Below, one piece after another: positions 14,962-47,060 of a DNA stretch of 64,000 nt. The stretch is from IMG/VR virus record IMGVR_UViG_3300049811_000692, positions 41,429 through 105,428 of that record; one strand, written 5' to 3'. Both the position numbers and the translations under genes were made by a program. Numbering within the stretch: the stretch's first letter is position 1; each line of letters begins with the position of its first letter. This stretch comes from a virus. The notes beneath the pieces are model-generated. The model made no database searches, had not been told where the DNA came from, and saw only the letters and a list, made by a program, of their open reading frames with translations.

Positions 14962-16047
14962 TTACGGGTCGTCATTTCCGGAGTTCCGTCGCCGGTTCCG
15001 TCGCCCTTCCGCCGCCACCCGCGCCTCGGCCGCCCGCTCGAACTGCTCGGGCGTGAAGCGGACGTACCGCCGGCGCATCTGGGGCGTCTTGTGGCCCCCG
15101 TGGCTGCTCAGCCCGATCTCATCCGCCCCCGAATCCGCCAGCTCCGTCAGCCCGGTCGCCCGCAGGTCCCGGAACTGCAGGTCGTCCGGCACGCCAGCCG
15201 CCTTGGCGACCTCCCGGAAGACGTGTCGGAAGTGGTCCTGGCGCCAGGGGCGCTTCGTCGCCTCGCAGATCACGACCTGCACGCCCGTCCGGGGCGTCGC
15301 AGCGAGCGCGGCGGCGAGGTCGGGGTAGGCGCCGGCCACCAAGGGGATGACCTCGCCCGTCTTGCGGGTCCCCACCTGGCGCTGGTCGAGCGCGGTCCAC
15401 GTCAGGCCGATCACGTCGCCCTGGCGCAGGGTCGCCCGCCAGGAGAGCAGCACCGCCAGCGCCATGCTCGGCCAGCCCATCTCCCGCGCCGCGGCGATCA
15501 CCGCCTCGATCTGCTCGGCGCTCCAGCGCTGCTTGCGGGAGGCGATGCCCTGAAGCTCCATCCGGGCCCAGGGGTTGTCCCGCCGGTCCACATGGTCCCG
15601 CCGGCCGCCCCAGTTCCACACCCGCCGCGCGTACCGGCAGGCGTAGTGCGCGGTTGCCTTCCCGTGGTCGAGGCACAGGGCCTCGTACAGCCGATCCGCG
15701 TGGCGCGGCTTGAGGGCGCCCGCCGGGAAGCCGCCCAGCGCCACGCCCCCGACCGGCAGGCCGCATAGCAGCCGGCCCAGCCACAGGTAGTCCTTCTTCG
15801 TGGAGGGGGCGAGGCGCCCGAATCGCTCATCCTGCTCGAACAGCGTGAACAGCCAGCGCACCGAGCCCGGTGCCGGCCCTTGGCCCTTCTGCAGCTCTGC
15901 GTTGATCTGCCGCGCCAGCGCCCAGGCGACCGTCTGATCGGCGCCGAGCGCCCGAGGCTTCATCTGGCCCCGGAGCTGCCGGGGCGGCTCCCAGAACCAG
16001 CGGCCCTTCCTCTGGATGGTGTGGGGTGGGCGGTCGGTCTCGCTCAT
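14962..16047 (-). CDS. int: Tyrosine integrase
   Basis: LRQGDV (R), FRDLRAT, GGHKT, RRY catalytic motifs; adjacent to att core. Confidence 0.92.
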   Translation of the reverse strand: MSETDRPPHTIQRKGRWFWEPPRQLRGQMKPRALGADQTVAWALARQINAELQKGQGPAPGSVRWLFTLFEQDERFGRLAPSTKKDYLWLGRLLCGLPVGGVALGGFPAGALKPRHADRLYEALCLDHGKATAHYACRYARRVWNWGGRRDHVDRRDNPWARMELQGIASRKQRWSAEQIEAVIAAAREMGWPSMALAVLLSWRATLRQGDVIGLTWTALDQRQVGTRKTGEVIPLVAGAYPDLAAALAATPRTGVQVVICEATKRPWRQDHFRHVFREVAKAAGVPDDLQFRDLRATGLTELADSGADEIGLSSHGGHKTPQMRRRYVRFTPEQFERAAEARVAAEGRRNRRRNSGNDDP

Positions 16048-16895: not shown

Positions 16896-17866
16896 CAGCG
16901 CAGCGGCGAGGGGGCCGTGCCGTGGAAGATCGGCGTCGTCTCGCCGACCGTCTCCCGGACCACTCGCACCACGTCCGCGAAGGCCGCCTTGAGGGTGAGG
17001 TCCGGCCGGTGCAGGAGCGGCGCGAAGAACAGCCCGCCTCCCTGGGCCCGGAAGCGCAGCCGCACCGCGATGGTGAAGGGCGGCGCCCCCTCAAACACGG
17101 GGATGGCCAGGAGGAAGGCCCGCGGGATGCGAACCAGATCCTTGCCGCCGAGCTTGTTGGTGTAGGTCGCCTCCTCCTCGCCGGTCGAGAGGTTGGTCTT
17201 GCCGCCGTAGGTCTGGTCGGACGTCACCTCGAGATCGGCCGCCAGCTGGCGCAGCTGGGCGTGGTCCGCGAAGGCGACGGCGCCCACCGCCTGCAGGGTG
17301 ACCTTCAGGCGCTCGGCCTCGTCGGCGCTCGGGGCGAAGATGTCGGCGTAGCGGTCCTCGATCAGCGCAGCGAAGGTGGCCTGCCCCACGTACTGGCCCG
17401 AGGCCTTCGTCCAGAACTGCCAGCTCTCGGAGAGGGTGAGGGGCAGGAACGCGCGGTACTCCTGCCAGCGCGGGCCGATCGAGTCGAGCTCGGCGAGGTC
17501 GGCGCCGGACGGCGCGTGGTCGATGATCGCCGTGAGGCCGGGCTTGCCCTCGTCCGTGTAGATCACGCTGTCCTCGTCGCGCTGCCGCACCACCCAGGCC
17601 GCGAAGCAGGCCGGGTTGTGCAGCACCGTCGTGCCGCGCATGGCGTCGGGGGCCAGGCCGGCCTTCTCGATCTCGGCGGTGACGTTCTTCACCTGCTGGT
17701 CGGCGCGCGCGACCAGGAAGCTTGCGTTGTCCACCTGCATGAAGCGCGGCGCCATGTGGCGCTCCGCGAAAGCGAGGGTCGCCTTCACGGCCAGGGGCGC
17801 CTGATCGGCCAGGGCGCCGCTGGTGTCGTCCTCGTTGAGGGGCTCGGTGACGTCGGTGGTGTTCAT
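16895..17866 (-). CDS. DUF2303 (YfdQ-like) protein
   Basis: AIIDH...W...RA, Q..FA.LIED, IP..F.LAIPVFEG...RLRFR. Confidence 0.8.
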   Translation of the reverse strand: MNTTDVTEPLNEDDTSGALADQAPLAVKATLAFAERHMAPRFMQVDNASFLVARADQQVKNVTAEIEKAGLAPDAMRGTTVLHNPACFAAWVVRQRDEDSVIYTDEGKPGLTAIIDHAPSGADLAELDSIGPRWQEYRAFLPLTLSESWQFWTKASGQYVGQATFAALIEDRYADIFAPSADEAERLKVTLQAVGAVAFADHAQLRQLAADLEVTSDQTYGGKTNLSTGEEEATYTNKLGGKDLVRIPRAFLLAIPVFEGAPPFTIAVRLRFRAQGGGLFFAPLLHRPDLTLKAAFADVVRVVRETVGETTPIFHGTAPSPLR

Positions 17867-21435: not shown

Positions 21436-21465
21436 AAAAACCCCGCCGGTTTCCCGGCGGGGGCC
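21436..21465 (-). terminator. Intrinsic terminator ending array A
   Basis: CCCCGCCGG-GAAA-CCGGCGGGG-TTTTT on minus strand. Confidence 0.85.
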
Positions 21466-21727
21466 TTGTCAAAGCACCAGCGCTCCAATGGCGCCGCTGA
21501 GGGTCATCCCCAAAAAAACGGCGCCGGCAGCGAGGGCCAGGAGGGCCATCCACTGCCGAGCCGCCTCGGGCACCGCGCCAAGCAACGCGCGGGCCGCGGA
21601 GCGCGGCGCCTGAGGAAATCGGGACGCCCGCCACAAGATCATGGGGAGTTGCCTTTCTGTCTTTCGCCCCGGCCTGGGGCGCAGCGGGCCGGCGCACCTG
21701 CGCCGGCAAGCCGACCGACCCAGCGGG

Positions 21728-22336: not shown

Positions 22337-22409
22337 GGCGGATGGGTCTCTTCGGCCCCGGGCAGGGGGCCGCGACTGGCCGCCCCAGGGTGGGGCGGCG
22401 GAACCCGGC

Positions 22410-22748: not shown

Positions 22749-22841
22749 GGTGGTGTCCTTCGTCCCGATCAGGGGACGCGACTGGCTGCCCCAGGACGGG
22801 GCGGCGGGGCCCGGGCGCTGAAGCGCCACGGGCAGGGAGGA

Positions 22842-23375: not shown

Positions 23376-23465
23376 CGGGGTGGTCCTTCGTCCCGATCAG
23401 GGGACGCGACTGGCCGCCTCACGCTGAGGCGGCGGGGGCCAGGGCGCGCGGGGCGCCGCTGGCAA

Positions 23466-23885: not shown

Positions 23886-23976
23886 GGTGGTCTCCTTCGC
23901 CCCGATCAGGGGGCGCGACTGGCCGCCTCACGCTGAGGCGGCGGGGCCAGAGCGTAGCGGCGCTCTGGCGAGGTGA

Positions 23977-24234: not shown

Positions 24235-24326
24235 AGGGCTTGGTCCTTCGCCCCGATCAGGGGGCGCGACTGGCCGCCTCACGCTGAGGCGGCGGGGAGC
24301 AGGGCGCAACGGCGCCCCGCTCGGTG

Positions 24327-24713: not shown

Positions 24714-24805
24714 CGGGGTAGTCCTTCGCCCCGATCAGGGGGCGCGACTGGCCGCCCCGGGACAGGGCGGCGGGGCCAGGGCGCACGGGGCGCCGCTGGC
24801 GGGCA

Positions 24806-25452: not shown

Positions 25453-25545
25453 GGTGGTGTCCTTCGTCCCGATCAGGGGACGCGACTGGCCGCCCCAAGA
25501 CGGGGCGGCGGGTGCCCGGGCGCCGAAGCGCCGCGGGCGGGAGGG

Positions 25546-26109: not shown

Positions 26110-26208
26110 GGTAGGGGTGGTCCTTCGTCCCCAGGCAGGGGAACGCGACTGGCCGCCTCACGTTGAGGCGGCGGGTGCGGAGGGCGCCGAAGCGCCCCCC
26201 GCGGTGCG

Positions 26209-27405
26209 TCAGATCGTCACCTTGTTCATCAAGGCGCCGGCCTTCCGCTCGAGCGCGACGCGCTCGTCCTGGTGCGGGATGTCACGGGCCATGGCGGTGA
26301 TGCCCTGGACCATGTCCCAGATCGAACGGGCCGGGCGGCCCTCGGTCTGCATGACGCTCTCCAGGATCGCCTTGGCGCCCGACTTCGAGAAGTCGCGCTG
26401 CCCGAGCCACTCGAGCGCCTCGTCGTCGGTCTTGGCGACGGTGAGACGCTTCGCCTCGATGGCCTTGCGGGCCACCGCACTCGCGGAGATGTTGGAGAAG
26501 TCCTTGAGGGTCGGCATCACCTCCCCCCGGAAGCGATCCGGGAGGCCAGAGGTGTGACGGAGCGCGATCTCGTTGCGCCCTTCGACTCCCCACAAATTGC
26601 GATTCAGGCAAATCGCCCGAAGGTACATCGTCACCACCCTGAGGGAGGCAGCGCCGACCTCTGAGTTGGAGACCATGAAGCCCGGGAAGATCAGATCGGG
26701 GTCGCCGTTGTCGAGCTTGCCGATCTCGATCGGGTACTGGTCCCGACACAGGAAGAGGAACACGTCGCGATCGCTCGCGTAGAGCGTGGTGCTCTGCTTC
26801 GAGAGATAGTCGGGGTTCGGATCGTAGGTCCCCGTGGTCCAGTCGATGACACCCGGCACCTTCCAGGTGCCGTCCTCGGTGATGGCCTTGACCGCCTCGA
26901 CCACGTCCGCGTCCCACACCCGCCCGTAGGTGGGCGAGGTGATGGCGCGCAGCTCGGTGCGGCCCTCCGGCGTCGTGGTCTTCAGGAGCTTGATGCTCTC
27001 CTCGGATGAACGGCTGAGGAGATCCTGAACGACGGCGGGGGCGAGCCGGGTGCGTCGCAGATAGCGGGCCGGGAAGTCGATGTGCTGACACAGCTGGCTG
27101 AACGACCAGTGCGTCGGGTAGCCCTCGCCATCGGGGGCGAGGATCCGCATGGTGTCGGCCGAGAGGTTCTCGTCGGCCAGCACCCTCAGCGACCGCGTCC
27201 CGTAGGTGTTGACGATCGAGTTCTCCATGCGCGCCTTCACGGCGTCCAGGAGGTCGTCCAGCGACAGAAAGCGCTGGTCGTCAGGGCGGGTGTACCACTG
27301 GGAACTCAGGGACCCGTCGAGGGCCCCGCGCCGCACGTCCACGCGCCGCGCCCCCGAGGGGGCGGAGGGCAGGGTGGCCGCGGGCGGGATGATGGTATCC
27401 GGCAT
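26209..27405 (-). CDS. Cassette gene, DUF932-family protein
   Basis: SSQWYTRPDDQRFLSL, PTHWSFSQLC, TSPTYGRVWD, TTLYASDRDVFLFL, NSEVG, CLNRNLWG. Confidence 0.85.
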   Translation of the reverse strand: MPDTIIPPAATLPSAPSGARRVDVRRGALDGSLSSQWYTRPDDQRFLSLDDLLDAVKARMENSIVNTYGTRSLRVLADENLSADTMRILAPDGEGYPTHWSFSQLCQHIDFPARYLRRTRLAPAVVQDLLSRSSEESIKLLKTTTPEGRTELRAITSPTYGRVWDADVVEAVKAITEDGTWKVPGVIDWTTGTYDPNPDYLSKQSTTLYASDRDVFLFLCRDQYPIEIGKLDNGDPDLIFPGFMVSNSEVGAASLRVVTMYLRAICLNRNLWGVEGRNEIALRHTSGLPDRFRGEVMPTLKDFSNISASAVARKAIEAKRLTVAKTDDEALEWLGQRDFSKSGAKAILESVMQTEGRPARSIWDMVQGITAMARDIPHQDERVALERKAGALMNKVTI

Positions 27406-27508
27406 AGTGCCGTGGTCCTTCTTCGGCCCCAGGCAGGGGGCCGCGACTGGCCAGAGCAATACGCTCCGGCGGAAGTGCCCGCGGCACAGAGGCGCCGCGG
27501 GCGGGCGA

Positions 27509-28021
27509 TCAGCCGGGCGGCAGATCGATGGGGTGGCCAGCTCCCTTCAGCAGGTCGGCGATGCGCTGGGCGACCAGCGCCGGATTGTCCAAGTCGCCGA
27601 GGTAGGTGCCGGGGTTGAACAGTCGGGCCGTGTCGTAGCGGCCGAGCTCAAAAAACCGCCCGCACGCCTCGAAGTCCTGTTCCGGATCCACGCCGAACGG
27701 GCGTTCCGCGGAGCGTGTTTCCGGCTCGGCATACAGGACCGAGATGTCGGCGGCCCGGTTGAAGCCGAGCTTGACCAGCTCGCGCGCAGACCGGATCGGG
27801 GTCCAGTTGAAGTTCTCCCAGAGCGCCATGCAGAACCCCTGGCTCTGGAACCAGGGGTCGAGGGAGGCGTGTCCTGCCGCGCAGGCGGCGGTGCCGCATT
27901 CGTTGGCCTTGCCCCACGACCCCATGTTGAGGTCCAGGAAGAAGGGAGGGGCGGGAGCCTTCTCGGCCTCCGCGAGCGTCAGCATGATCGCCCGGAGGCG
28001 CTGGAGTGCTTCCACGTTCAT
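27509..28021 (-). CDS. Cassette gene, paralogue 1 (CGTxACAxG family)
   Basis: ECGTAACAAGHASLDPWF. Confidence 0.8.
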   Translation of the reverse strand: MNVEALQRLRAIMLTLAEAEKAPAPPFFLDLNMGSWGKANECGTAACAAGHASLDPWFQSQGFCMALWENFNWTPIRSARELVKLGFNRAADISVLYAEPETRSAERPFGVDPEQDFEACGRFFELGRYDTARLFNPGTYLGDLDNPALVAQRIADLLKGAGHPIDLPPG

Positions 28022-28114
28022 GGTGGGTGTCCTTCGTCCCCAGGCAGGGGGACGCGACTGGCCGCCTCGATGGGAGGCGACGGGGCCCGGGCGCCGAGGC
28101 GCCGCGGGCGAGGG

Positions 28115-28648
28115 TCAGGTGAGGCCCGCCTCCCGGCGAGCCTCGGCCTCCAGCTTGAGCCGGGCGAGCAGCTTCTCGACGCGGTTCAGGACGGCCTGCG
28201 GCGAGCCGAGTTCCGAGCGCTCGTATTCGTCGGGATCGAAGAGGTAGCGCGCGCGGGGCTCGGGGATACCGAAGAAGCTTGCCGCCGCGTGGTAGTTGAG
28301 GGGCCACTCGTAGGGATTGATCTCGGCGAGCTCCTCTTCGGGCGGGCCGCTCGGCGTTTTGTGGATCGGCATGACGGTGCGCCCCATGCAGGTGACTTTC
28401 GCGAGCTCTTCCACAGTGAAAGCCGCCGTGCCGCGCGCGGTGACCAGAAAGAGCCCGCGCTCCTGGAACCAGGGGTCCAGGCAGGCGAGGCCGACCGCGC
28501 AGGCGGTGGTACCGCATTCAGAGCGGCCATGAGCCCAGAGATCCATCCGGAGGTGGATGATGGGTGGCGAGAGCGCGTCCTGCGCCTCAATCTGCTGCGC
28601 AAGCAGGTCGCAGAGCCGTTCGAGCGCCTCGATGTTGGGTGTAGTCAT
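28115..28648 (-). CDS. Cassette gene, paralogue 2
   Basis: ECGTTACAVGLACLDPWF. Confidence 0.8.
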   Translation of the reverse strand: MTTPNIEALERLCDLLAQQIEAQDALSPPIIHLRMDLWAHGRSECGTTACAVGLACLDPWFQERGLFLVTARGTAAFTVEELAKVTCMGRTVMPIHKTPSGPPEEELAEINPYEWPLNYHAAASFFGIPEPRARYLFDPDEYERSELGSPQAVLNRVEKLLARLKLEAEARREAGLT

Positions 28649-28740
28649 CGTGGTGTCCTTCGTCCCCAGGCAGGGGGACGCGACTGGCCGCCTCGATGTG
28701 AGGCGGCGGGGCCCGGGCGCCGAGGCGCCGCGGGCGAGGG

Positions 28741-29277
28741 TCAGGTGAGGCCCGCCTCGCGGCGAGCCTCGGCCGTCAGCTTGAGCTGGGCGAGCAGCTC
28801 CTCGACGCGGTTCAGGACGGCCTGCGGCGAATTGCGCTCGCCGCGGCCGTACTCTTCCGGATCAAAGAGGCCGCGCGCCTGCCAGGGCTTGATCCCAAAG
28901 AACGACGCGCCCGCGTTGTACTCGTGGGGCCAGTCGAATGGGTCGCGGCCCGTATCCGGGTTGTTCGGGTCTCGATGGATCGGGAAGAGCCGCTTGCCAG
29001 GGTGGCGCTTGAGGTCGTCGAGCGTTCGGGCGATGTCGCCGTCGCTGCTCACCAGCACAAGCCCGCGCTCCTGGAACCAGGGGTCGAGGCAGGCGAGGCC
29101 CAAGGCGCAGGCCGTTGAGCCGCAATCGGCGCGGTAAGGTTCGGAGCGCCCCCAGTTGCACATGTCGAGGCGGATCTCAACAAAGCGCTGCAGCACAGGA
29201 GCGGCTTTCTCGACCGCGATTTGCTCCGCGAGCAGACGGCAGAGCCGCTCGAGCGCCTCGATGTTGGGTGTGGTCAT
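28741..29277 (-). CDS. Cassette gene, paralogue 3
   Basis: DCGSTACALGLACLDPWF. Confidence 0.8.
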   Translation of the reverse strand: MTTPNIEALERLCRLLAEQIAVEKAAPVLQRFVEIRLDMCNWGRSEPYRADCGSTACALGLACLDPWFQERGLVLVSSDGDIARTLDDLKRHPGKRLFPIHRDPNNPDTGRDPFDWPHEYNAGASFFGIKPWQARGLFDPEEYGRGERNSPQAVLNRVEELLAQLKLTAEARREAGLT

Positions 29278-29388
29278 CGTGGGTGGTCCTTCGTCTCCAG
29301 GCAGGGGGACGCGACTGGCCGCCTCGATTCGAGGCGGCGGGAACAACCGGCTGGGGTGGCACAAAGGGCTGCACACCAGATGTGGTGG

Positions 29389-33862: not shown

Positions 33863-34182
33863 GCGTCCTGTATCGTGGTCCAGGCCGTCCTGCTGCGGGG
33901 CCTCGCGGCGCCCAGTATGAGGTGGGCGCGCTAGGCCGGCGCGGCGGGTCGTGACGCCACCTCTGCCCCTGGATCAGCCACGATCCGGGGTGGTCATTTG
34001 GCAGCAGAGGCTCAGGTGCGAGCTTGCGGGCAACACAGAGGTGCGTCGAAGTGGGTCTGCAAGCGCTGCGGTGCTTGCGCCTTGCCGCCTCACGAGGGCG
34101 GTTCGGCTCGCTTCCTGTCTCAACCCTCGGGATGAGGGGCAGTAGATACATAGGGGAGCGACAGCGAGGACTTCACTTGTCC
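33826..34182 (-). ncRNA. Candidate ~350-nt structured RNA
   Basis: Promoter TTGCAT-17 nt-TATATT (34188-34216), several hairpins, no credible ORF, terminator at the end. Confidence 0.5.
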
Positions 34183-34215
34183 TAAGTAATATAACAAAAC
34201 GACCCGTCAGATGCA

Positions 34216-34249
34216 AGAAAAACCCGACGATTGCTCGTCGGGTTTCTTG
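34216..34249 (-). terminator. Terminator ending array B
   Basis: aaacccgacga-ttgc-tcgtcgggttt. Confidence 0.85.
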
Positions 34250-34849
34250 TCAGGTCGTCGCCTCGGGCTCGTAGAGCCGGAGGAGGGGGTAAGGCTCCGC
34301 GTCACGGTCGAAGTTGATGAACCGGGCCGAGTGCCGGCGCGCGACCGAGAAGCAGGCCTCCAAGGCGCGCGGCGCAGGAGGTTCGATCTCGATCATGAGA
34401 TCGTCTTCGTCCTCGGACGGGACGACTACCACCCACCCGTCGATGTGGCGATGGGTGCGGTGCGGGGGCAGCTTGGCGCCCTGCAGGAAGGCGCCGCTGC
34501 CCGCAAGGCGGTAGGCGGTCACCGCCGCCTCCTCCATCGCGGCCCACTCGTCGAGAAGCTGGGTGGTCTCGGGGTCGAGGTGGGCGGCGCAGAGGTCGAG
34601 AATGATCCTGGTCGGGTAGGGGTCCTCGATCGCCGCCTTCAGGCGTGCGATGAGGGCCTCGACCTCGAGCAGCAGTTCGTTCGACTGCTCGTCGGCGCTC
34701 TGGCGGTCGCGGGCCAGCTCGCCAGTCAAGGTCGTGATCGGCGTGCCGTCGGCGGCCCGGAGGACCGTGCAGGCGCTCTCCAGGAGGTTCTGGCGGTCCG
34801 CCTCGATGTAGGCGAGCGCGTCGTGCGCCGCCTCGATGAGATCGGGCAT
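34250..34849 (-). CDS. Cassette gene with DUF5983-like C-terminus
   Basis: LDLCAAHL..ET..LL...GWVVVV...AR..SA..INFD.DA...LRLYE. Confidence 0.65.
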   Translation of the reverse strand: MPDLIEAAHDALAYIEADRQNLLESACTVLRAADGTPITTLTGELARDRQSADEQSNELLLEVEALIARLKAAIEDPYPTRIILDLCAAHLDPETTQLLDEWAAMEEAAVTAYRLAGSGAFLQGAKLPPHRTHRHIDGWVVVVPSEDEDDLMIEIEPPAPRALEACFSVARRHSARFINFDRDAEPYPLLRLYEPEATT

Positions 34850-34942
34850 GGTGGTGTCCTACGGCCCCAGGCTGGGGGCCGCGACTGGCCGCCCCACAGC
34901 GGGGCGGCGGGGCCAGGACGCAACGGCGTCCTGGCAAGGTGG

Positions 34943-35377
34943 TCAGGTCTCGGCGTCCTCGTCCACCACGCGGCGCGGCAGCTTGATGTCGAGCCCGGTG
35001 GCCGTGGCCGCGAGGGCCAGGCCGGCGGCCCAGAGGGAAGGGCCGCCATCCGACGACACCTTGATGGCGTCGGGGGCGTGGTGGGCCGCGATGGCCAGGA
35101 TCGCCGTCACCGCGGTGTCGTAGGGGTAGCCGCGGGTCTTGCAGAAGTTGAAGTACCCGTCCGCGTAGGCCCGGCCGATCGGCTCCTGCGTGAGCAGGAA
35201 CGTCTCGCAGTCCTGCCCATCCACGCCGTTGAAGGCGATGGCGGAGGAGGAGTCGCCGCGCTCGAGGCGGACGGCGCCGTGAGCCTCGGTCAGCGCCGCG
35301 GTCGCGTCGAGGCGGATGCGGCGCCACTCTTCGTTGGTGAACGGGCGCGTGATGCGCCAGTAGTGGGTGTGGCCCAT
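34943..35377 (-). CDS. Cassette gene, hypothetical
   Basis: MGHTHYW...FNG...CETF...FNFCKT..YPYD.AV...VSSDG. Confidence 0.8.
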   Translation of the reverse strand: MGHTHYWRITRPFTNEEWRRIRLDATAALTEAHGAVRLERGDSSSAIAFNGVDGQDCETFLLTQEPIGRAYADGYFNFCKTRGYPYDTAVTAILAIAAHHAPDAIKVSSDGGPSLWAAGLALAATATGLDIKLPRRVVDEDAET

Positions 35378-35468
35378 GGGGCGTGGTCCTTCGCCCCGAA
35401 CAGGGGGCGCGACTGGCCGCCCCACAGCGGGGCGGCGGGGCCAGGGCGCGCGAGGCGCCGCTGGCGGG

Positions 35469-36116
35469 TTAGAGGCGGGCGCAGCGATCGCCATCCTTGG
35501 TGAAGCGGTACTCGTTGATGGTGATCGCCTCGTCCACGTACTCGTCCGAGTTGCGGTATTCGTCCTCGGTGAGCACCTGCTTCAGCAGCCACACGGCGAG
35601 GTCGCGCAGGAGCCTGGTGATTGCCTCCTCGGCGCCTTCGGTCATGTCCTGGTGGGTCGGGCTGTCCCGCTCCACGTCGATGACCATGCAGTACTCGTGG
35701 TTGTAGGGCGGGCTGTAGCCGACCTTCGCGCGCAGCTGGTAGAAGTTGGCCTTCTGGACCTTCTGCAGCTCGTCGGCGATGCGGTGGAGCTCGTTGTCTA
35801 TGGGGGCGTAGTCGCGGATCGCCTGGGTCGAGCCCTTGGCGTAGCGATAGGTGCCCTCGAAGCGGGCGCCCTGCCCCTGGCAGTAGAGGTGGGACCAGAA
35901 GACGCAGGGATTGCGGCGGGTGCCCCCGCCGTAGAGCCTGACCGGGTAGGTCGCGAGCTCGACGCCGAGGATCTCGCAGATCTGCTCGAAGTCGGACGTC
36001 ACGCTATCGAAGTCGTCGTCGGAGAACGCCTCGCGCCACCAGGCGCGGGCGCGTTCCTTCGCGTCGTCGTCGAGCTCCTCGAAGAGGTAGACCGCGACGA
36101 CCATGGTTTCGGGCAT
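35469..36116 (-). CDS. Cassette gene of a plasmid/ICE-type family (often auto-annotated 'antitoxin of toxin-antitoxin stability system')
   Basis: VYLFEELDDDAKERARAWWR...QGQGARFEG...QKANFYQL...HEYCM...NEYRFTKDG. Confidence 0.75.
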   Translation of the reverse strand: MPETMVVAVYLFEELDDDAKERARAWWREAFSDDDFDSVTSDFEQICEILGVELATYPVRLYGGGTRRNPCVFWSHLYCQGQGARFEGTYRYAKGSTQAIRDYAPIDNELHRIADELQKVQKANFYQLRAKVGYSPPYNHEYCMVIDVERDSPTHQDMTEGAEEAITRLLRDLAVWLLKQVLTEDEYRNSDEYVDEAITINEYRFTKDGDRCARL

Positions 36117-36198
36117 GGTGGTGTCCTTCGCCCCGAACAGGGGGCGCGACTGGCCGCACCAGGGCGGTGCGGCGGGCCGCCCTACTGGGGCGGGGTCG

Positions 36199-36486
36199 TC
36201 AGATGATGCGCAGCGGCGGACGCCCAGCGCGGTAGCGCTGGATGATCCAGGCCGTGATGTAGGCCCAGGCGGCGAGGGTCGCGATCCAAAAGAGCGCGGT
36301 CTCGGCCACGTCGCTCCGGCCGATCAGCCACCAGGTCAGGGGCGGGCCGATCAGGTTCTCGGTCAGCCACCAGAAGGGGCTGAGGAAGGTGCCCGTGGCG
36401 GCCAGCGTCAGCACGCCGATGGCGGCGGCAAACAGGAAGGTCGGCACGGGGTAGAGGAAGACGGCGCAGAAGGCGCGGAACAGCAT
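36199..36486 (-). CDS. Cassette gene, small membrane protein
   Basis: 95 aa, hydrophobic; element SD. Confidence 0.7.
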   Translation of the reverse strand: MLFRAFCAVFLYPVPTFLFAAAIGVLTLAATGTFLSPFWWLTENLIGPPLTWWLIGRSDVAETALFWIATLAAWAYITAWIIQRYRAGRPPLRII

Positions 36487-36586
36487 CGGGGTGGTCCTTT
36501 CGGCCCATGCAGGGGCCGCGACTGGCCGCCCCAGGGCGGGGCGGCAAGAGCCGAGCTTACAGGCGCTCGGCGGGCCTTGATCCAGA

Positions 36587-36973
36587 TCAGGTGTGGATCG
36601 TCCACGCCCGCTCTTCGGGGTGGAGGATGATTCCTCCCGCGTAAAGGAGCTGGATGCCGGTGCTGCCTGCGGGCGCGGTGCTGATGCTCCAGTCGAGGTT
36701 CGGCGTCGTGTCATCGCCCCAGACCGGGGCAATGAGCAGGACCACCGGCCGCTCGCTGCGCGCCGCGTAGAGGGACGCGGTGTGGAGCACCTCGCCCATG
36801 CAGCGGTCGAGGGAGGCGCGGACGTTGTTGGTCCGCGCCCACTCCAGGAGGTCCCGGAGGTGGCCGGGGTTCCCGTAGCGGATCGTCAGGCCGTGCTTGC
36901 CCTGGGGCAGGTCGTCCTGGCGGGTGATCGGCCCGCGCAGAGGGGCCGTCGGGATGGTAAGGAGGTCGCCCAT
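36587..36973 (-). CDS. Cassette gene, hypothetical
   Basis: C-terminal GGIILH...WTIHT motif. Confidence 0.75.
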   Translation of the reverse strand: MGDLLTIPTAPLRGPITRQDDLPQGKHGLTIRYGNPGHLRDLLEWARTNNVRASLDRCMGEVLHTASLYAARSERPVVLLIAPVWGDDTTPNLDWSISTAPAGSTGIQLLYAGGIILHPEERAWTIHT

Positions 36974-37072
36974 GGTGGGGTGTCCTTCGGCCCCCAGTCA
37001 GGGGGGCCGCGACTGGCCGCCCCACAGCGGGGCGGCGGGGCCAGGGCGCGCGGGGCGCCGCTGGCGGGATGG

Positions 37073-37567
37073 TCACTCGGGGACCAGCAGACGGGCCGCG
37101 TCGATGGCGTCCTGGCTCTCATCCTCGAGGTTGCCGAGGTTGAGGTCCGGGCAGTCCAGCAGGCGCCGGAGCGCCTCCTGCAGCCTCTCGATGGTGTCGG
37201 CCGCGGTCTGAAGGTCGCGGGCGACGTTCTGGAGGCACTCGGTCTGCTCGGTGAGGGTGTAGGGCTCGAAGCAGGCCGGGCGGAGCCAGCGCCCTTCGTA
37301 GAGGCGCAGGTCGGCCCGCGCGGCCGGATCGGTGACGTCCTCGGGCCACACGATGGGCGGCTCGGCGTCGCCGGCGAAGCGCGTGTAGTGCGGGTCGTCC
37401 GCTTCCTGCTCGTCGTAGTAGCCGTCGGGCGGGGCGAGGGGGCGGCCTTCGCTGTCGAACTCGCCACCGTCGAGCGCGGCGCCGATGTCAAAGGTGTCGA
37501 GCCAGCGCCCGGTGTTCGAGGCGCCGAGCGCGGCCTCGCGCAGCCGCGCGGGGGTGATGTTCAGCAT
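37073..37567 (-). CDS. Cassette gene, hypothetical
   Basis: Element SD then ATG. Confidence 0.75.
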   Translation of the reverse strand: MLNITPARLREAALGASNTGRWLDTFDIGAALDGGEFDSEGRPLAPPDGYYDEQEADDPHYTRFAGDAEPPIVWPEDVTDPAARADLRLYEGRWLRPACFEPYTLTEQTECLQNVARDLQTAADTIERLQEALRRLLDCPDLNLGNLEDESQDAIDAARLLVPE

Positions 37568-37662
37568 GGTGCTGTCCTTCGGCCCCAGGCAGGGGGCCGC
37601 GACTGGCCGCCCCACAGCGGGGCGGCGGGCCAAGGCGCGCGGGGCGCGCCTTGGGTGATGTG

Positions 37663-38364
37663 TCAGTCCTCGTCCTCAAGGAGGGCCTTCAGGTCGAACG
37701 GCCTGTCGTAGGCGATCGCGGCATGCGCCGGCACCGCGTACTCGTAGATCTTGAAGCGGTTCGTGCCGCCCGCCAGCGAGCCTTCGCCGGAGAAATTGCT
37801 CCCCTCGTCGTAGCAGACGATGTGGAAGGCGATGTCCGGGTAGGTCTCGCAGATCTTCTCGAAGATCGGCTCGGGCGGCGACCAGGCGGTGTCGAACCTG
37901 AACTCCAGATCGTGCTCGGTCTGCGAGACGACGTGGAACTGGTAAGCGTTCCACTTCGTCCCCCAGTTGGCGACCGACCAGCCGTACCAGTTGTAGTGGC
38001 CGGTCTGGCGGTGGAGCTGGATCATCTTCTCGGCCGTGGGGATGGCGGTGGGATGATCCTTCTTCAGCCAGGCGAGCACGTCCTCGCGGGTCTTCAGGCC
38101 TTGGGTCTCGGCCCACGGGTAGGCCCGCGGGTCGCAGGGTTCCGACATGACGCCGCCGGCGGGCTCGCCGAGCGCCCAGAGGGCGTAGCTCTCGCTCGAG
38201 CCCGAGACGGTCTCGGCCATGCCGGGCGGCATGGGGATCAGCGTGTTGAAGTCGAAGATCCGGTCGCCGTTCTCGCGCGTGGTCGTGACCGCCGCGAGGA
38301 ACGCGGCGATCCGTCCCTCCGCGGGGCAGTAGGCCCGGACGCGGTGGGTGACGTGGTTGGGCAT
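37663..38364 (-). CDS. Cassette gene, DUF1281/YubB ferredoxin-like family
   Basis: MPNHV, FDFNTLIPMP, WYGWSVANWGTKWNA, FDTAWSPPEP. Confidence 0.85.
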   Translation of the reverse strand: MPNHVTHRVRAYCPAEGRIAAFLAAVTTTRENGDRIFDFNTLIPMPPGMAETVSGSSESYALWALGEPAGGVMSEPCDPRAYPWAETQGLKTREDVLAWLKKDHPTAIPTAEKMIQLHRQTGHYNWYGWSVANWGTKWNAYQFHVVSQTEHDLEFRFDTAWSPPEPIFEKICETYPDIAFHIVCYDEGSNFSGEGSLAGGTNRFKIYEYAVPAHAAIAYDRPFDLKALLEDED

Positions 38365-38455
38365 GGTGCTGTCCTTCGGCCCCAGGCAGGGGGCCTCAAC
38401 TGGCCGCACCAGGTGGTGCGGCGGGCCGCCCCCTATGATGGAGGCGGTGGTCGCA

Positions 38456-38674
38456 TCATGCGACCTGTCGGTGGATGGCGTCCGACGCCTCGGCCGGGGT
38501 CGAGTACGAGCCGATCAGCTCGCTCTCGCTTCGGCCGGAGGCGAAGATGAGCTGCCGGGAGACCGTGTGCCGCCCGGAAGACGACGAGAGGACGTAGCTC
38601 CGGTGGACGACGGGGTCGTGGCGGTGAGGGGGAGGCGCGCCGCGGGAGGGGCGCCGACCGCGGTGGGTGGTCAC
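38456..38674 (-). CDS. Cassette gene, small hypothetical
   Basis: Element SD then GTG. Confidence 0.55.
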   Translation of the reverse strand: MTTHRGRRPSRGAPPPHRHDPVVHRSYVLSSSSGRHTVSRQLIFASGRSESELIGSYSTPAEASDAIHRQVA

Positions 38675-38765
38675 AGGTTGTGGTCCTTCGCCCCATGCAG
38701 GGGGCGCGACTGGCCGCCCCAGGGTGGGGCGGCGGGGCCAGGGCGCGCGAGGCGCCGCTGGCGGG

Positions 38766-39041
38766 TCACGAAGCCAGGCGCGCAAGCTCCTGGTCGAGGG
38801 CTTCGCGCGAGGTGGCGACGATCCGGAAGACCGCGCGCGATGAGCCGGTTGCGCAGCGCGTGGCCTGCCAGGCGTCGGGCCAGGTGTCGGGGTCGCAGAA
38901 GATCGGCGACGCCGGCCGGATGTTCCAAGGGCCCTCGAACGAAGTCGTGGCGCGGAGGCGGTCGGCGAACACGCTGGCAGACACCTCGTGGATTGCGGGG
39001 CCTGGCTGGGTCGCCAGGAGGTGCATCGTGGTGTCGCTCAC
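38766..39041 (-). CDS. Cassette gene, small hypothetical
   Basis: Element SD then GTG. Confidence 0.6.
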   Translation of the reverse strand: MSDTTMHLLATQPGPAIHEVSASVFADRLRATTSFEGPWNIRPASPIFCDPDTWPDAWQATRCATGSSRAVFRIVATSREALDQELARLAS

Positions 39042-39133
39042 GGGGTTGTGGTCCTTCGCCCCATGCAGGGGGCGCGACTGGCCGCCCCAGGACAGGGCGG
39101 CGGGGCCAGGGCGCGCGAAGCGCCGCTGGCGAG

Positions 39134-39391
39134 TCATGCCTCGTTGAGATGGAAGGCGATTTGTGTCCCGTCGGCATCCCGATGGGAGATGTGAATCACG
39201 TCCCTCTCGACGCAGGTGAAGGCGACGCTTGGCCGCCCGGGGCCGAGGCCCAGGACAAGCGGCGTGGAGCCGATCGGCACGGCCTCCCAGATGAAGGGAA
39301 GGCCGAGGGGGTCGCCGTGGGTCGGTGGCGCGCCGAGCAGCTCGGCGGCCGCGTCGATGAGCGACTTGCCCAGGACGAACGCGAGCGCCAT
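39134..39391 (-). CDS. Second gene of a two-gene cassette
   Basis: TGATG coupling. Confidence 0.55.
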   Translation of the reverse strand: MALAFVLGKSLIDAAAELLGAPPTHGDPLGLPFIWEAVPIGSTPLVLGLGPGRPSVAFTCVERDVIHISHRDADGTQIAFHLNEA

Positions 39392-39537
39392 CAGCGGTCG
39401 CCGGTGAAGAGCGATCGCCGCCGCTGGTGACGGCGCCGCTCGAGCTGCGCATGGACGGCGAGGATGGCGGCGACGGCCAGGAAGGCGAGGCCGCCGATGG
39501 TGCCGGCGACGTGAAGCACGGCCAGGAAGAAAGCCAT
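39391..39537 (-). CDS. Cassette gene, 48-aa membrane peptide
   Basis: MAFFLAVLHVAGTIGGLAFLAVAAILAV...; element SD; below ORF-track cutoff. Confidence 0.6.
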   Translation of the reverse strand: MAFFLAVLHVAGTIGGLAFLAVAAILAVHAQLERRRHQRRRSLFTGDR

Positions 39538-39633
39538 GGTGGGTGTCCTTCGTCCCCAGGCAGGGGGACGCGACTGGCCGCCCCAGGGCGGGGCGGCGGG
39601 GCCAGGGCGCGCGAGGCGCCGCTGGCGGGCGAG

Positions 39634-40284
39634 CTACAGGGGCTCGATGTTGTCGATGATGGTGGCGTCGCCAGCGTAGCCGCCGATCCACTCGCCGTCG
39701 GGATCGCCCTCTTCGAGCATCTCCTCGGCGAGCTGCCGGGCGTGCATGGCGCTGCGCGCCTCGATCTTCACCTTCAGGGTCTCCCAGCGCTTGCGCGAGA
39801 AGGTCACCGCGTAGGTGCCGACCTCCTCGGCCGCATCGGGCGGAAGCTCGATGGGCGGAAGGGGCGCCAGATCGACTTTGCTCTCGGCGAGGAGGAGTGC
39901 GATGGCGGCCGGCCCTCGCTCCAGGGTGGCCGCCATGGTGGCCAGACCGATGGTCGGGTTGCCGTCGTGGTCGGCCGTGTAGGCGACCGGATCAGCGCCG
40001 GGACGGTAGATCGTCACGGCCGGCCCGTACTCGTAGCCAGGGCCAGTGTGGACCCTTGCGTGCAGCTGAAACCGCACGAGCAGATCCGTCAGCGAGTTCC
40101 ATGTGCCGTAGTTCACCTCGTCCTGGTCAATCAGGATGTGCTCCTCGTCGGAGGAGCCATCGATGACCTCCTCGATGTTCGAGAAGGTGACGGGCTCCCT
40201 GTCGAGGAGGTCTCGCAGGCCGGTAAGGGCGTCCGCCGAAATGGGGCCGCCGATGGTGACGTTGACGGTGCAGCGATCACCCAT
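39634..40284 (-). CDS. Cassette gene, hypothetical
   Basis: MGDR...IGG; AAGGAG SD from the element. Confidence 0.75.
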   Translation of the reverse strand: MGDRCTVNVTIGGPISADALTGLRDLLDREPVTFSNIEEVIDGSSDEEHILIDQDEVNYGTWNSLTDLLVRFQLHARVHTGPGYEYGPAVTIYRPGADPVAYTADHDGNPTIGLATMAATLERGPAAIALLLAESKVDLAPLPPIELPPDAAEEVGTYAVTFSRKRWETLKVKIEARSAMHARQLAEEMLEEGDPDGEWIGGYAGDATIIDNIEPL

Positions 40285-40358
40285 GGGGGTGTCTCCTTCG
40301 TCCCCAGGCAGGGGGACGCGACTGGCCGCCCCAGGGCGGGGCGGCGGGAGGCGGATAT

Positions 40359-40396
40359 GCAAAAGCCCCCACCCGCGGGGGCGGATGGGGGCTTTC
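40359..40396 (-). terminator. Terminator-like hairpin inside array B
   Basis: AAAGCCCCCATCCGC-loop-GCGGGTGGGGGCTTTT on minus strand. Confidence 0.6.
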
Positions 40397-40399
40397 GGG

Positions 40400-40570
40400 T
40401 CAGGCGGCCGCGTCGAGCTCGTTCTGGAGCTTGGCGTTGCGCTCGCGCAGGCGGGCGACGGCGCGGGCCGGCTCACCCCGGGGGTGGACCATGTCGTACA
40501 CGATCACGCCGCCGATTGCGGTCATGGCGCCGTAGAAGCCGGCGACCAGGAAGTTGGTGGCGATGCCCAT
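40400..40570 (-). CDS. Cassette gene, 56-aa membrane peptide
   Basis: TM helix then basic coiled coil. Confidence 0.65.
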   Translation of the reverse strand: MGIATNFLVAGFYGAMTAIGGVIVYDMVHPRGEPARAVARLRERNAKLQNELDAAA

Positions 40571-40768
40571 GGTGGGGTTGTCCTTCGGCCCAGTCAGGGG
40601 CCTCGACTGACCACCCCACAGCGGGGCGGCTGGTCGGCCCCCCGCTCGACCGCCGCCCGAGGGAGCGGCAGGAGCAGGGGGCCCTTTCGCGCCTCGACCG
40701 GAGGCGCACGACGGGCCGCCTCGGTGGGGCGGCAAGGTGCCCAGCTGCCGGCTGGGCTCGGGGTCGGT

Positions 40769-40966
40769 TCAGCCGACCAACTTCGGGGCCTGCCCGCGCG
40801 GGGGCTGGCGGGCCGCGATCTCGTTCTGGAGCCGCTGGGCGCGGCGCTCGAGGGCGAGCTGCTGGCCGACACGGAAGGCGGCGGCGCCGATGCCGACGCC
40901 CGCGACGACCGTGAAGCCGATCACGGCCGCCTGAGCGGCCTTTTCCGAGACGAACGCGAGGTTCAT
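40769..40966 (-). CDS. Cassette gene, 65-aa membrane peptide
   Basis: TM helix then basic coiled coil. Confidence 0.65.
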   Translation of the reverse strand: MNLAFVSEKAAQAAVIGFTVVAGVGIGAAAFRVGQQLALERRAQRLQNEIAARQPPRGQAPKLVG

Positions 40967-41172
40967 GGGGAATGTCCTTCGGCCCAGACAGGGGCCTCAG
41001 CTGGCCGCCCCAGGGTGGGGTGGCTGGGCCCTCGCCGTCGGAGGGGTCCGGCGGCGAGGGGGAGGGTAGTAGGGGTAGTGGTTCGATCCCCGGCCGGGGG
41101 ATCTCGACGGGCCACCCCAGCATGGGGTGGCGCCAGACCGCCCGGGCACGAGGCCCAGGCGATTGGAAAGGG

Positions 41173-41343
41173 TCAGGCGGCCTTCTTGGTCTCCTCGACC
41201 GCCTTCGCGGCGCGGCGCTTGGCGAGCGCCTGGCGGGCGGCCGGGATGCCGTGCGTGACGGTGAGGGTCACGCCGACGCCGGCGGCGACGCCGATGGCGT
41301 ACGGGAGGGCGGGGCGAACGAAGGCGAGGGCGTTCTGGAACAT
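41173..41343 (-). CDS. 56-aa membrane peptide, first gene of unit B
   Basis: SD GGAG; MFQNALAFVRPALPYAIGVAAGVGVTLTV...KKAA. Confidence 0.65.
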   Translation of the reverse strand: MFQNALAFVRPALPYAIGVAAGVGVTLTVTHGIPAARQALAKRRAAKAVEETKKAA

Positions 41344-41393
41344 GATGTTCTCCAGTCCAATCAGAGAGGGGTAATTCCCTGCTCTGTAGGTGT

Positions 41394-41423
41394 ATTATTA
41401 CGCCTAAATACGTGTCATGGCAA
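41394..41423 (-). promoter_or_regulatory. Sigma70 promoter for array B
   Basis: TTGCCA-17 nt-TAATAA(T) with AT-rich upstream DNA. Confidence 0.7.
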
Positions 41424-41435
41424 GTAAAAAGTGAA

Positions 41436-41471
41436 GAAACCCAAGAAAAACGGGTGTTTTTCTTGGGTTCT
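41436..41471. terminator. Terminator hairpin
   Basis: acccaagaaaaac / gtttttcttgggt. Confidence 0.7.
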
Positions 41472-41477
41472 GGGCCG

Positions 41478-41945
41478 TCAGAAGGGCAACAGTGCCTCTT
41501 CAGGTGGCGGGGAGATGTGGCCGCTCACGCGAAGCCGGATGGTGTTCTGAGCTTCGAGCAGGCCGTAAAAGGCGTGATCGAAGCTGCGGATGAAGTCCGG
41601 ATTCAGGTGTGTGAGCGCCTGATCGTAGCAGGGGCTCACACGGTTAGTGGCGATGGTCATTGCCTGGGGTGAGCAGGCGAAGAGCGCCGCCGTAACCGCG
41701 TCGCGACGCCGAACGACCATCCCGAAGAACGGGATGAGGTCGAGGTCGAAGTTCTCCAGGGTGGCCGAGGGCTCCTCGTCGCGGCCGACGTCCAGGTGGT
41801 AGAGGCTCTCGTCGAGCCGGCCGAGCATGTTGTGGTGGAGCTCGCGGAGTTCCATGCCGCAGATTGACCGGTAGTTGGGGGGCGCGAGGCCGCAGAACGG
41901 CGGCTCGGGTTCGTCGGGCACGTAGCCCGAATCAAAGGGGGCCAT
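41478..41945 (-). CDS. Hypothetical protein, self-contained transcription unit
   Basis: SD AAGGA; promoter TTGCTT-16 nt-TATATT at 42010-42037. Confidence 0.65.
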   Translation of the reverse strand: MAPFDSGYVPDEPEPPFCGLAPPNYRSICGMELRELHHNMLGRLDESLYHLDVGRDEEPSATLENFDLDLIPFFGMVVRRRDAVTAALFACSPQAMTIATNRVSPCYDQALTHLNPDFIRSFDHAFYGLLEAQNTIRLRVSGHISPPPEEALLPF

Positions 41946-42036
41946 GATGGCGTCCTTCTGCCCGGCGAGGGCAGCGGGATGCGGCCCCTGAGACGCAGGG
42001 CGATGAGCCAATATACCACAACGGACTGAAAAAGCA

Positions 42037-42070
42037 AGAAAACCCGCCGCAACCGAAGTCGCGGCGGGGT
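42037..42070 (-). terminator. Terminator ending array C
   Basis: CCCGCCGCGAC-TTCG-GTTGCGGCGGG-TTTTCTT. Confidence 0.85.
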
Positions 42071-42075
42071 CTTGG

Positions 42076-42612: not shown

Positions 42613-42703
42613 GGCGGTGATCTCCTTCGTCCCCAAGCAGGGGGACGCGACTGGCCGCCCCAGGGCGGGGCGGCGGGTCCCTGGCCTTGCGGCCAGGGGG
42701 TGC

Positions 42704-42874
42704 TCAGCGCCGTCGCCGGCGCGGGCGCTTGTACCAGGAGCGATCCCGGACGACCCGCACGAGCGGCGGGGCGGCCAGGTTCTCCCAGCGCAGCATCCGC
42801 GCCGCCGCGGCGGCGTCGCGCCTCGTGCGGTAGCAGGTCGGCGCCAGAAGGCCATCGACGCGCAGGGTGTACAT
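42704..42874 (-). CDS. Small basic protein, second gene of cassette
   Basis: TGATG coupling. Confidence 0.5.
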   Translation of the reverse strand: MYTLRVDGLLAPTCYRTRRDAAAAARMLRWENLAAPPLVRVVRDRSWYKRPRRRRR

Positions 42875-43179: not shown

Positions 43180-43272
43180 AGTGGTGTCCTTCGTCCCCGA
43201 GCAGGGGGACGCGACTGGCCGCCCCAGGACGGGGCGGCGGGTGCCCGGGCGCCAAAGCGCCGCGGGCGGGGG

Positions 43273-43911: not shown

Positions 43912-44002
43912 GGTGGTGTCCTTCGCTCCGATCAGGGAGCGCGACTGGCCGCCTCACGTCGAGGCGGCGGGGCCCGGGCGCCAAAGCGCCGCGGGCGGGC
44001 CT

Positions 44003-44662: not shown

Positions 44663-44756
44663 CGTGGATGTCCTTCGTCCCCGAGCAGGGGGACGCGACT
44701 GGCCGCCTCACGTCGAGGCGGCGGGTGCCCGGGCGCCGAAGCGCCGCGGGCGGGGG

Positions 44757-45701: not shown

Positions 45702-45793
45702 GGTGGTGTCCTTCGTCCCCGAGCAGGGGGACGCGACTGGCCGCCCCAAGACGGAGCGGCGGGGCCAGGGCGCCGGGGCGCCGCTGGCGGGGG

Positions 45794-46371: not shown

Positions 46372-46465
46372 GGTGGGTGTCCTTCGTCCCCAGGCAGGGG
46401 GACGCGACTGGCCGCCTCGAGGTGAGGCGGCGGGTGCCCGGGCGCCAAAGCGCCGCGGGCGGGGG

Positions 46466-46882: not shown

Positions 46883-46959
46883 GGTGTTGTCCTTCGTCCC
46901 CGAGCAGGGGGACGCGACTGGCCGCCCCACGACGGGGCGGCGGGACGCTCGCAGAGACG

Positions 46960-47036: not shown

Positions 47037-47060
47037 TGGAGGAGGACAACAGGGGGTCCC

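Follow-up and report, generated by a model that had tools for sequence, protein, structure and literature searches.

The gap in front of a DUF932-family gene in a temperate, tailed phage is filled by an element of three hairpins. This raises the question of whether selection maintains a double-stranded DNA site there or the fold of one strand, and if a fold, of which strand and as which nucleic acid. The element (positions 27406-27502, minus strand) lies in the window that we analysed, 64,000 nt of DNA corresponding to positions 41,429 to 105,428 of the IMG/VR virus record IMGVR_UViG_3300049811_000692 (105,428 nt, 71% G+C). An earlier reading of the letters alone, here called the original prediction, proposed that selection acts on a single-stranded fold of the coding strand rather than on a duplex site. 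We find that the element is one of many copies of a conserved, covarying fold at the cistron boundaries of three operons. Covariation, paired insertions and deletions, wobble bias and tetraloops support the proposed folding of the coding strand, most likely as mRNA.

An element repeated at gene starts

A covariance model built on 33 clear copies recovers two more divergent ones (21657-21710 and 40680-40736). This gives 35 copies in the window, all of them on the minus strand and in three operons, A, B and C (Table 1). There are none elsewhere in the 105-kb genome, whose structural half is free of the element, and the model otherwise matches only parts of the palindromic stems read on the reverse strand. 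Exact matches to the 11-mer GGCCAGTCGCG number 28, all on the minus strand and none on the plus strand, always at 22.3-47 kb of the window and nowhere else in the genome. With up to one mismatch the 11-mer is absent from the region at 29.4-34.8 kb around a cI-like helix-turn-helix (HTH) gene, and its matches outside the arrays are at chance level and have no hairpins.

The element is about 100 nt long and takes up most of the space from one stop codon to the start codon that follows. Its parts follow in the order P1, (A)CCC, P2, CAGUCG, P3, a Shine-Dalgarno (SD) sequence, 7-11 nt and an ATG or GTG. P1 is a variable, GC-rich hairpin of 7-14 bp, usually with one bulged base and frequently with a UNCG or GNRA loop, which begins a few nucleotides past the previous stop. 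P2 has 8 bp and P3 has 5-8 bp, the 3' arm of P3 ending 0-3 nt before the SD. An SD with a start codon 7-11 nt beyond it is present in 32 of the 33 clear copies, and all copies are co-oriented with the genes. Sequence is conserved in the lower pairs of P2 and in the junction, the upper part of P2 and the loops being conserved in shape only. In most copies the single bulged nucleotide of P1 is found 4-5 bp from the base of the hairpin, in this phage as a 5' C.

P1 is without a U tract in 32 of 33 copies, and operons A and C each begin with a copy that lacks P1, which fits a hairpin of the preceding cistron's 3' end. The 8 nt before P2 are U-rich in just one copy of 33, which has no canonical P1, and the element was rejected as an intrinsic terminator on this ground.

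Conservation of the fold

The core alignment has 98.3% of its cells in standard pairs, compared with 91.0% for shuffled partners (none of 500 shuffles reaches the observed value) and 39-54% in a control with slid partners. Two-sided changes are seen in six of the 15 pairs; P2 pair 7, for example, is C-G in 22 copies and U-A in 10, and P3 pair 3 is U-A in 15, G-C in nine and C-G in eight copies. RNAalifold recovers both P2 and P3. Stems of 5, 6, 7 and 8 bp in P3 all close over a 6-nt CUGNNN loop, and the constancy of the loop over stems of different length means that insertions and deletions have been matched on both arms.

Two copies (27452 and 21657) have a largely rewritten P2 with its geometry kept. 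The first of them is the focal copy upstream of the DUF932 gene, whose P2 the original prediction had described as rewritten, with the 8-bp stem and 5-nt loop retained and a G-U pair on the minus strand. That description matches base for base. Five of the eight pairs differ from the family consensus GCCGCCCC-N5-GGGGCGGC, four by two-sided changes and one as a G-U, at pair 4, which on the plus strand is A-C.

Leaders in related phages

Five other phage records of 80-103 kb (G001 to G005) share structural genes with this phage, and all have co-oriented leaders at gene starts. Identity in a conserved protein of 519 amino acids is about 60% for G001-G004 and about 55% for G005. The provirus G002, which is part of an isolate genome (IMG 2882837327), has the same leader plan as the window, in two variants. 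A nested leader is found in 17 co-oriented copies in G001, 24 in G003 (a complete genome) and 14 in G004. It consists of P1, a linker, GCCCCC[GGGY-NNN-GCCC]GUCGA-N-GGGGGC and the SD, and its outer helix has compensated length changes and one G-C to U-A change. G005 contains about 22 copies of a two-hairpin leader on the reverse strand, at about 22.4-45.4 kb of its record. This leader reads CGAAACC-stem-loop-stem-GGUC-GCCCGC-N6-GCGGGC-AUGAGGAG, and its second hairpin covaries (GCCCGC/GCGGGC, GCCGGC/GCCGGC and GCUGGC/GCCAGC).

The six related phages have three leader architectures on one plan. All leader types share GUCG at a hairpin junction, end in a hairpin directly next to the SD and have loops of RNA type on the gene strand, and each phage has its own homogeneous type despite the turnover of its cargo. 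The bulge of P1 is a 5' C or A in G003, and it is a 3' bulge, mostly C, in G001 and G004. Conservation of this bulge suggests recognition by a protein rather than mere stability.

A covariance model of the window's leader type, applied to 57 DUF932 loci and to 25 relatives at a greater distance, matched the provirus G002 alone, and DUF932 loci elsewhere have none of these repeats. Collection scans for further copies of this leader type used exact patterns. They found no further copies in viral contigs and 108 stretches in genome contigs, where each of the 80 listed is a single match and looks like chance. A looser pattern gave single matches only in metagenome contigs, none of them confirmed by the covariance model. 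In one unrelated viral contig with a DUF932 gene, four iteron-like repeats of 22 bp (GTCCACCGAGTGGACGGGTGGA) lie beside a 12-nt pyrimidine repeat (5261-5427), and there is also a long 12-nt tandem array (17287-17843).

Folding strand and type of nucleic acid

Folding of the coding-sense strand makes a non-Watson-Crick pair of the transition type a G-U, and folding of the opposite strand makes it an A-C. Counted within defined helices only, this phage has 17 G-U pairs (nine in P1, seven in P2 and one in P3) and four A-C pairs, a bias with p 0.004 at an expected share of 0.5. The original prediction had listed copies that deviate by G-U on the minus strand, and these pairs are present at 24753, 26154 (P3), 39083, 40612 (two) and 45742; copy 28063 has another, beyond that list. 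Three copies had been said to go the opposite way, and minus-strand A-C pairs are indeed located at 22787, 29320 (P3) and 41006. The ratios T/C (0.080) and A/G (0.078) at four-fold sites are nearly equal, which gives no sign of a strand-biased transition rate.

The strand bias, which the original prediction had proposed to check in a full alignment, extends to the relatives. P1 cores of 88 hairpins in five phages have G-U and A-C pairs in a ratio of 20:2. In the provirus G002 seven of nine copies have U-G at P2 pair 2, and there are more G-U pairs and no A-C. The inner hairpin of the nested type is closed by U-G in 12 of about 55 copies and never by C-A. Across the family, events counted conservatively come to about 37:5, with p 2e-7 for an expected share of 0.5 and p 4e-4 for one of 0.64; such counts are approximate because copies within a genome are related by descent.

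Tetraloops provide a test that is independent of the wobble test and specific to RNA. Among 47 distinct P1 tetraloops, read on the sense strand, there are 10 UNCG, six GNRA and one CUUG, 17 compared with 1.5 expected from loop composition (p 6e-14). Read antisense, three fall into the same classes and 4.3 are expected. Six of the sense loops are C(UUCG)G and three are C(UCCG)G; the C(UUCG)G loops noticed at the outset belong to copies 25491, 26154 and 44704. On its gene strand, the third leader type, that of G005, contains the loops C(UUCG)G, C(UCCG)G and C(GCGA)G. Unusual stability is a property of UNCG loops in RNA; for DNA, Antao, Lai and Tinoco reportedly found in 1991 that d(TTCG) loops do not share it. 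The tolerance of G-T wobble in DNA means that the wobble bias alone cannot separate RNA from single-stranded DNA of the same sense, and it is the sense excess of tetraloops, with the RNA-specific stability of UNCG, that favours mRNA.

A candidate pseudoknot

The original prediction also suggested a small pseudoknot beside the SD, formed by CAG in the junction and CUG in the P3 loop. The two are complementary in 31 copies, and the topology is feasible, with 3 nt from CAG to a stem of 5-8 bp. CCG and CGG take their place in copies 41113 and 40680 and in three copies of G002. These copies amount to one compensatory switch, between two sub-lineages, and there is one exception; copy 34890 has CAG with CAG, which breaks the pairing. 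An H-type pseudoknot is therefore possible and weakly supported by these sequences.

Table 1. Features of the focal copy, the operons and the element cores (P2-junction-P3-SD) in window coordinates; all cores other than the focal one are listed as located by the covariance model
Feature	Position	Strand	Remarks
Focal copy, whole element	27406-27502	-	P1, P2, junction, P3, SD, then DUF932 ATG
Stop codon of upstream gene	27509-27511	-	Strand reading
Focal P1 hairpin	27477..27502	-	GCCCGCGGCGC-CUCU-GUGCCGCGGGC; 11 bp, one G-U; begins 6 nt past upstream stop
Focal linker P1-P2		-	ACUUCC
Focal P2	27450..27470	-	GCCGGAGC-GUAUU-GCUCUGGC; rewritten; 8 bp, 5-nt loop, G-U at pair 4
Focal single-stranded junction	27444..27449	-	CAGUCG; most conserved part of the element
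Focal P3	27424..27443	-	CGGCCCC-CUGCCU-GGGGCCG; 3' arm stops 3 nt short of SD
SD of DUF932 gene	27416..27420	-	AAGGA
DUF932-family gene	26209..27405	-	398 aa; served by focal copy; ATG 27405-27403
Promoter-like site	41394..41423	-	TTGCCA-18-AATAAT; head of operon B
Canonical terminator	42043..42068	-	U tract; end of operon C
Canonical terminator	21441..21462	-	U tract; end of operon A
First core, operon C	46887..46944	-	82.4 bits; no canonical P1
Core	46377..46434	-	
Core, copy 45742	45706..45763	-	U-G in P2
Core, copy 44704	44668..44725	-	P1 loop C(UUCG)G
Core	43916..43971	-	P3 pair changed to U-A
Core	43184..43241	-	
Last core, operon C	42620..42677	-	
Divergent core, copy 41113	41076..41134	-	Junction CCG, P3 loop CGG; no start codon after
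Core, copy 41006	40972..41027	-	A-C in P2, C-A in P1
Divergent core, copy 40680	40680..40736	-	Junction CCGUCGU, P3 loop CGGUC
Core, copy 40612	40578..40633	-	Two G-U in P2
Core, copy 40327	40291..40348	-	Terminator-like hairpin 40365-40382 before it
Core	39543..39600	-	
Core, copy 39083	39049..39104	-	U-G closing P2 loop
Core	38681..38736	-	
Core	38369..38425	-	P2 with A-U pair and 4-nt loop
Core	37572..37629	-	
Core	36980..37039	-	P3 extended to 8 bp on both arms
Core	36493..36548	-	
Core	36121..36176	-	
Core	35384..35439	-	
Core, copy 34890	34854..34911	-	P3 loop CAGCCU; proposed pseudoknot broken
First core, operon A, copy 29320	29284..29341	-	No canonical P1; C-A in P3
Core	28653..28710	-	
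Core, copy 28063	28027..28084	-	U-G in P2
Core, copy 26154	26118..26175	-	U-G in P3; P1 with UUCG loop and G-U
Core, copy 25491	25457..25512	-	P1 loop C(UUCG)G
Core, copy 24753	24719..24774	-	U-G closing P2 loop
Core	24241..24296	-	
Core	23890..23945	-	
Core	23381..23436	-	
Core, copy 22787	22753..22808	-	C-A in P2
Core	22345..22402	-	
Divergent core	21657..21710	-	P2 rewritten, GCCGGCGC-AGGU-GCGCCGGC

Operons and cargo

The phage has genes for an integrase, ERF and YqaJ recombination proteins, DnaB, VRR-NUC, the cI-like HTH protein and Ro60/TROVE. The only integrase gene (14962-16047), about 6 kb away from the nearest array, has its match in the general Phage_integrase family. The ERF and YqaJ genes adjoin operon A; the cI-like HTH gene, which is conserved in all relatives, sits between the arrays. 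The genes within the arrays are small and mostly without an assigned family, with weak or clear matches to DUF932 (closest homologues at 62% identity), DUF1281_C, DUF5983 and DUF3846. Only four of 32 array genes (21728-46882) have a relative in four compared phages, whose structural genes are 35-60% identical, and by this comparison the arrays are hypervariable cargo regions.

The only canonical terminators are those at the ends of operons A and C and a third one within operon B (40365-40382), which occupies the P1 position of copy 40327 and consists of GCCCCCGCGGGUGGGGGC followed by UUUU. For the 11 further cassettes beyond this internal terminator no promoter can be recognised, so their expression may depend on read-through or antitermination.

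Two of three tandem paralogous genes in operon A have their ends, together with the element, in a 227-nt repeat of 90% identity (28026-28252 and 28652-28878). This repeat is consistent with a duplication through recombination between leaders.

Similarity to described repeats

Rfam 15 has no match in the whole window at gathering scores, and none at E<=1 in 34000-47200. The closest described analogues are the SAS/ESAS repeats, which are found at gene starts of cluster K mycobacteriophages, have been known since 2011 (PMC3203893) and are also covered in a survey of 188 genomes (PMC12699233). Like the element described here, they are short repeats just upstream of start codons that include the SD, with an inverted repeat immediately upstream. 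They have one orientation and occur at non-structural genes only, as do all 35 copies here. Both are specific to a phage clade and stand ahead of unrelated gene families, in 11-19 or more copies per genome. However, the SAS consensus GGGATAGGAGCCC (13 nt, up to two mismatches, 3-8 nt before starts) is not found on the gene strand and has a single stray match on the opposite strand. The element here, with its three hairpins and a length of about 100 nt, fills the whole intergenic gap. The authors of the SAS/ESAS work reported no support for RNA pairing from the departures that the ESAS arms show, and favoured DNA-binding sites (PMC3203893), whereas the pairing here is backed by covariation, paired insertions and deletions, wobble bias and tetraloops.

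Stoperators of cluster A mycobacteriophages (PMC3203893) are also asymmetric conserved intergenic sites oriented with transcription. They are duplex sites of 13-14 bp that also make up the operator of the early promoter and do not require flanking stems, whereas no copy here is at a promoter and the flanking stems covary. REP and BIME elements (reviewed in PMC3184786) are GC-rich hairpins after stop codons that are able to protect the upstream mRNA. REPs, however, are spread over the chromosome in either orientation, without a tie to the SD that follows, whereas the copies here are confined to one strand of three operons within 21.6-47 kb and include the SD.

The arrays resemble those of integrons, in which small, unrelated, co-oriented genes are separated by a repeated structured element, attC, with shape conserved above sequence and strand-specific folding. 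An attC site is one long imperfect hairpin with RYYYAAC/GTTRRRY cores that folds as single-stranded DNA and is cut by IntI. The element, in contrast, has three separate hairpins, an SD and RNA-type loops, and none of 66 strand instances contains RYYYAAC or GTTRRRY.

The RNase III hairpins of phage T7 are repeated structured elements between the cistrons of long transcripts. After cleavage by RNase III, the upstream mRNA is stabilised by the hairpin left at its 3' end, and the ribosome-binding site downstream can become free. The T7 sites are single long hairpins of about two helical turns (about 20 bp) with an internal loop; here P1 (7-14 bp), P2 (8 bp) and P3 (5-8 bp) are too short, and the conserved part is a single-stranded junction. 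The nut sites of lambda and put sites of HK022 are structured RNA sites in early phage operons, and operon B holds one terminator-like hairpin. These sites are found once per operon near the promoter with conserved loop or stem sequences, unlike the 7-15 copies per operon here, whose P2 loops vary freely. Readings as integron, CRISPR, terminator, RNase III site, REP or nut/put site fail on defining features, and the element family appears to be undescribed, a new structured variant among the gene-start-associated repeats of phages.

Proposed function

We consider it probable that the element is a cis-acting structured segment of polycistronic early or accessory mRNAs of this temperate phage, folded in the coding sense. 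P1 would belong to the 3' end of the upstream cistron, and P2, the CAGUCG junction and P3 would form the 5' leader of the next one. The hairpins would leave the ribosome-free gap nearly all paired, which would protect it from exonucleases and offer little single-stranded RNA to Rho or RNases. They would also keep the SD and start codon open in a defined context, whichever foreign gene adjoins. A factor of host or phage may recognise the junction between the hairpins and possibly cut the RNA there as an endonuclease, in which case the upstream fragment would end in a hairpin and the downstream fragment would begin with a hairpin followed by the SD. Each cistron of the long GC-rich operon would in this way become an independent unit with its own stability and its own open ribosome-binding site. 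Sequence conservation in the junction and the lower P2, together with a homogeneous leader type in each phage, points to a trans-acting reader.

Besides the common descent of copies, several points weigh against this proposal. Under a conservative null of 0.64, the share of T among A+T at four-fold sites, the wobble tally of the window alone is not significant (p 0.08). The folding energy of the whole element is lower antisense in 26 of 33 copies, with more G-U pairs overall. We attribute this to composition, although it may still hold a signal: C-rich linkers of the sense strand turn G-rich in the antisense and pair promiscuously, and whole-element energy was dropped as a strand test. A minimum free energy count over P1 regions with flanks gives 20 sense and 50 antisense G-U pairs, and here the antisense excess is due to the conserved flanks of the nested type. 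These flanks, GAA before P1 and CCC after it, would form tandem A-C pairs in the sense strand and tandem G-U pairs in the antisense, and the next pair outward, the third closing pair, is not maintained. Their pairing is a counter-signal for which we have no explanation, and it was left out of the pairing counts. One copy in G003, with P1 CGCCCCGG.../...CCGGAGCG, folds better as antisense. Predicted accessibility from SD to start is 0.545 for the native leader and 0.517 for shuffled ones (higher in 24 of 32 copies), a small gain that offers weak support for an open SD. A tblastn comparison of all open reading frames with four relatives gave no candidate trans-acting RNA-binding factor among the shared proteins, which are structural proteins, DnaB, VRR-NUC, HTH and small proteins without assigned function only. 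Finally, transcription of the element as mRNA, stabilisation or insulation, recognition by a factor, cleavage and an effect on translation are all steps that we infer from sequence patterns.

The same evidence for a reader could be explained by an RNA operator, in which the base of P2 and the junction, possibly with the P3 loop, bind one RNA-binding protein of phage or host that switches the translation of all cassettes on or off together, the hairpins doing no more than presenting the site. T4 RegA controls the translation of many early mRNAs in this way. Sequence is kept in the lower P2 and the junction, with GGCCAGUCGCG identical in 28 copies, and only shape in the upper P2 and the loops, GUCG is at the hairpin junction in all leader types, and the bulge of P1 is kept across phages. 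Each phage also has its own leader type although 28 of 32 cargo genes are without a relative in the four phages, which fits co-evolution with a factor. We nevertheless regard such a regulon as unlikely, as no RNA-binding protein was found among the proteins that the phages share, and P1 with its UNCG and GNRA loops is no better explained by it than by plain stability. A complete genome is among the four leader-bearing relatives that lack a homologue of the Ro60/TROVE gene (52320-53807), and a general link between Ro60 and the leaders is therefore unlikely.

It is improbable that the copies are DNA recombination joints alone, short homologies for gain, loss and duplication of cassettes by ERF and YqaJ with an incidental RNA fold. 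The neighbouring ERF and YqaJ genes, the rapid turnover of cargo beside related structural genes, the three tandem paralogues between near-identical elements and the 227-nt repeats all agree with such joints. Homology alone, however, predicts no compensatory changes, no paired insertions and deletions, no preference for G-U over A-C, no enrichment of tetraloops and no constant spacing from the SD. The element is probably spread, and cassettes duplicated, by recombination between copies; this leaves the structural signals unexplained and cannot be the sole selection.

We give very little credence to a coding-sense fold of single-stranded DNA during replication or recombination, of the kind seen in attC or in the single-strand promoters of conjugative leading regions. 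It would be compatible with the wobble bias, and DUF932, DUF1281_C, DUF5983 and DUF3846 are typical of conjugative elements, but the record is that of a tailed temperate phage, the UNCG excess is expected for RNA, there are neither attC cores nor promoter-like hexamers in the GC-rich stems, and the fixed SD distance ties the element to translation. It is just as hard to see the 11-mer as a duplex site at which a repressor or another DNA-binding protein blocks transcription of the arrays in the prophage, like a stoperator. The asymmetry and conservation of the sequence, its place in short gaps, its constant orientation along transcription and the conserved cI-like gene between the arrays would suit such a site, but no copy is at or near the promoters beside the repressor gene or outside the arrays, and covariation of the stems around it, a strand bias of wobble pairs and particular classes of tetraloop would not be expected.

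If the element is a structured segment of mRNA, as we prefer, a wider role can be put forward tentatively. In a clade of temperate phages of about 80-105 kb, every horizontally acquired accessory gene, its role likely being anti-defence or host takeover, may carry an RNA 'expression adaptor' that is specific to the phage and whose GUCG junction is recognised, and probably cut, by a co-evolving factor. Long operons would thereby become sets of stable units, each translated on its own. The leader would then be both an expression tag and a joint for cassette recombination that is unrelated to integrons, and in the leader type of the window a 3-bp pseudoknot beside the SD would be part of the recognition.

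Conclusions

In contrast to the SAS/ESAS repeats, the leaders described here allow pairing, strand and RNA-type loops to be read from their sequence. Natural mutants are at hand in the copies with a rewritten P2, the CCG/CGG copies and the copy with a broken loop, and the leaders are practical markers for hypervariable cargo arrays in phage genomes. If each cistron is indeed an independent unit, this would explain how fast-changing foreign genes are expressed from few promoters in RNA of 70% GC, and the synthetic insulator parts of operon engineering would have their natural counterparts in the leaders.

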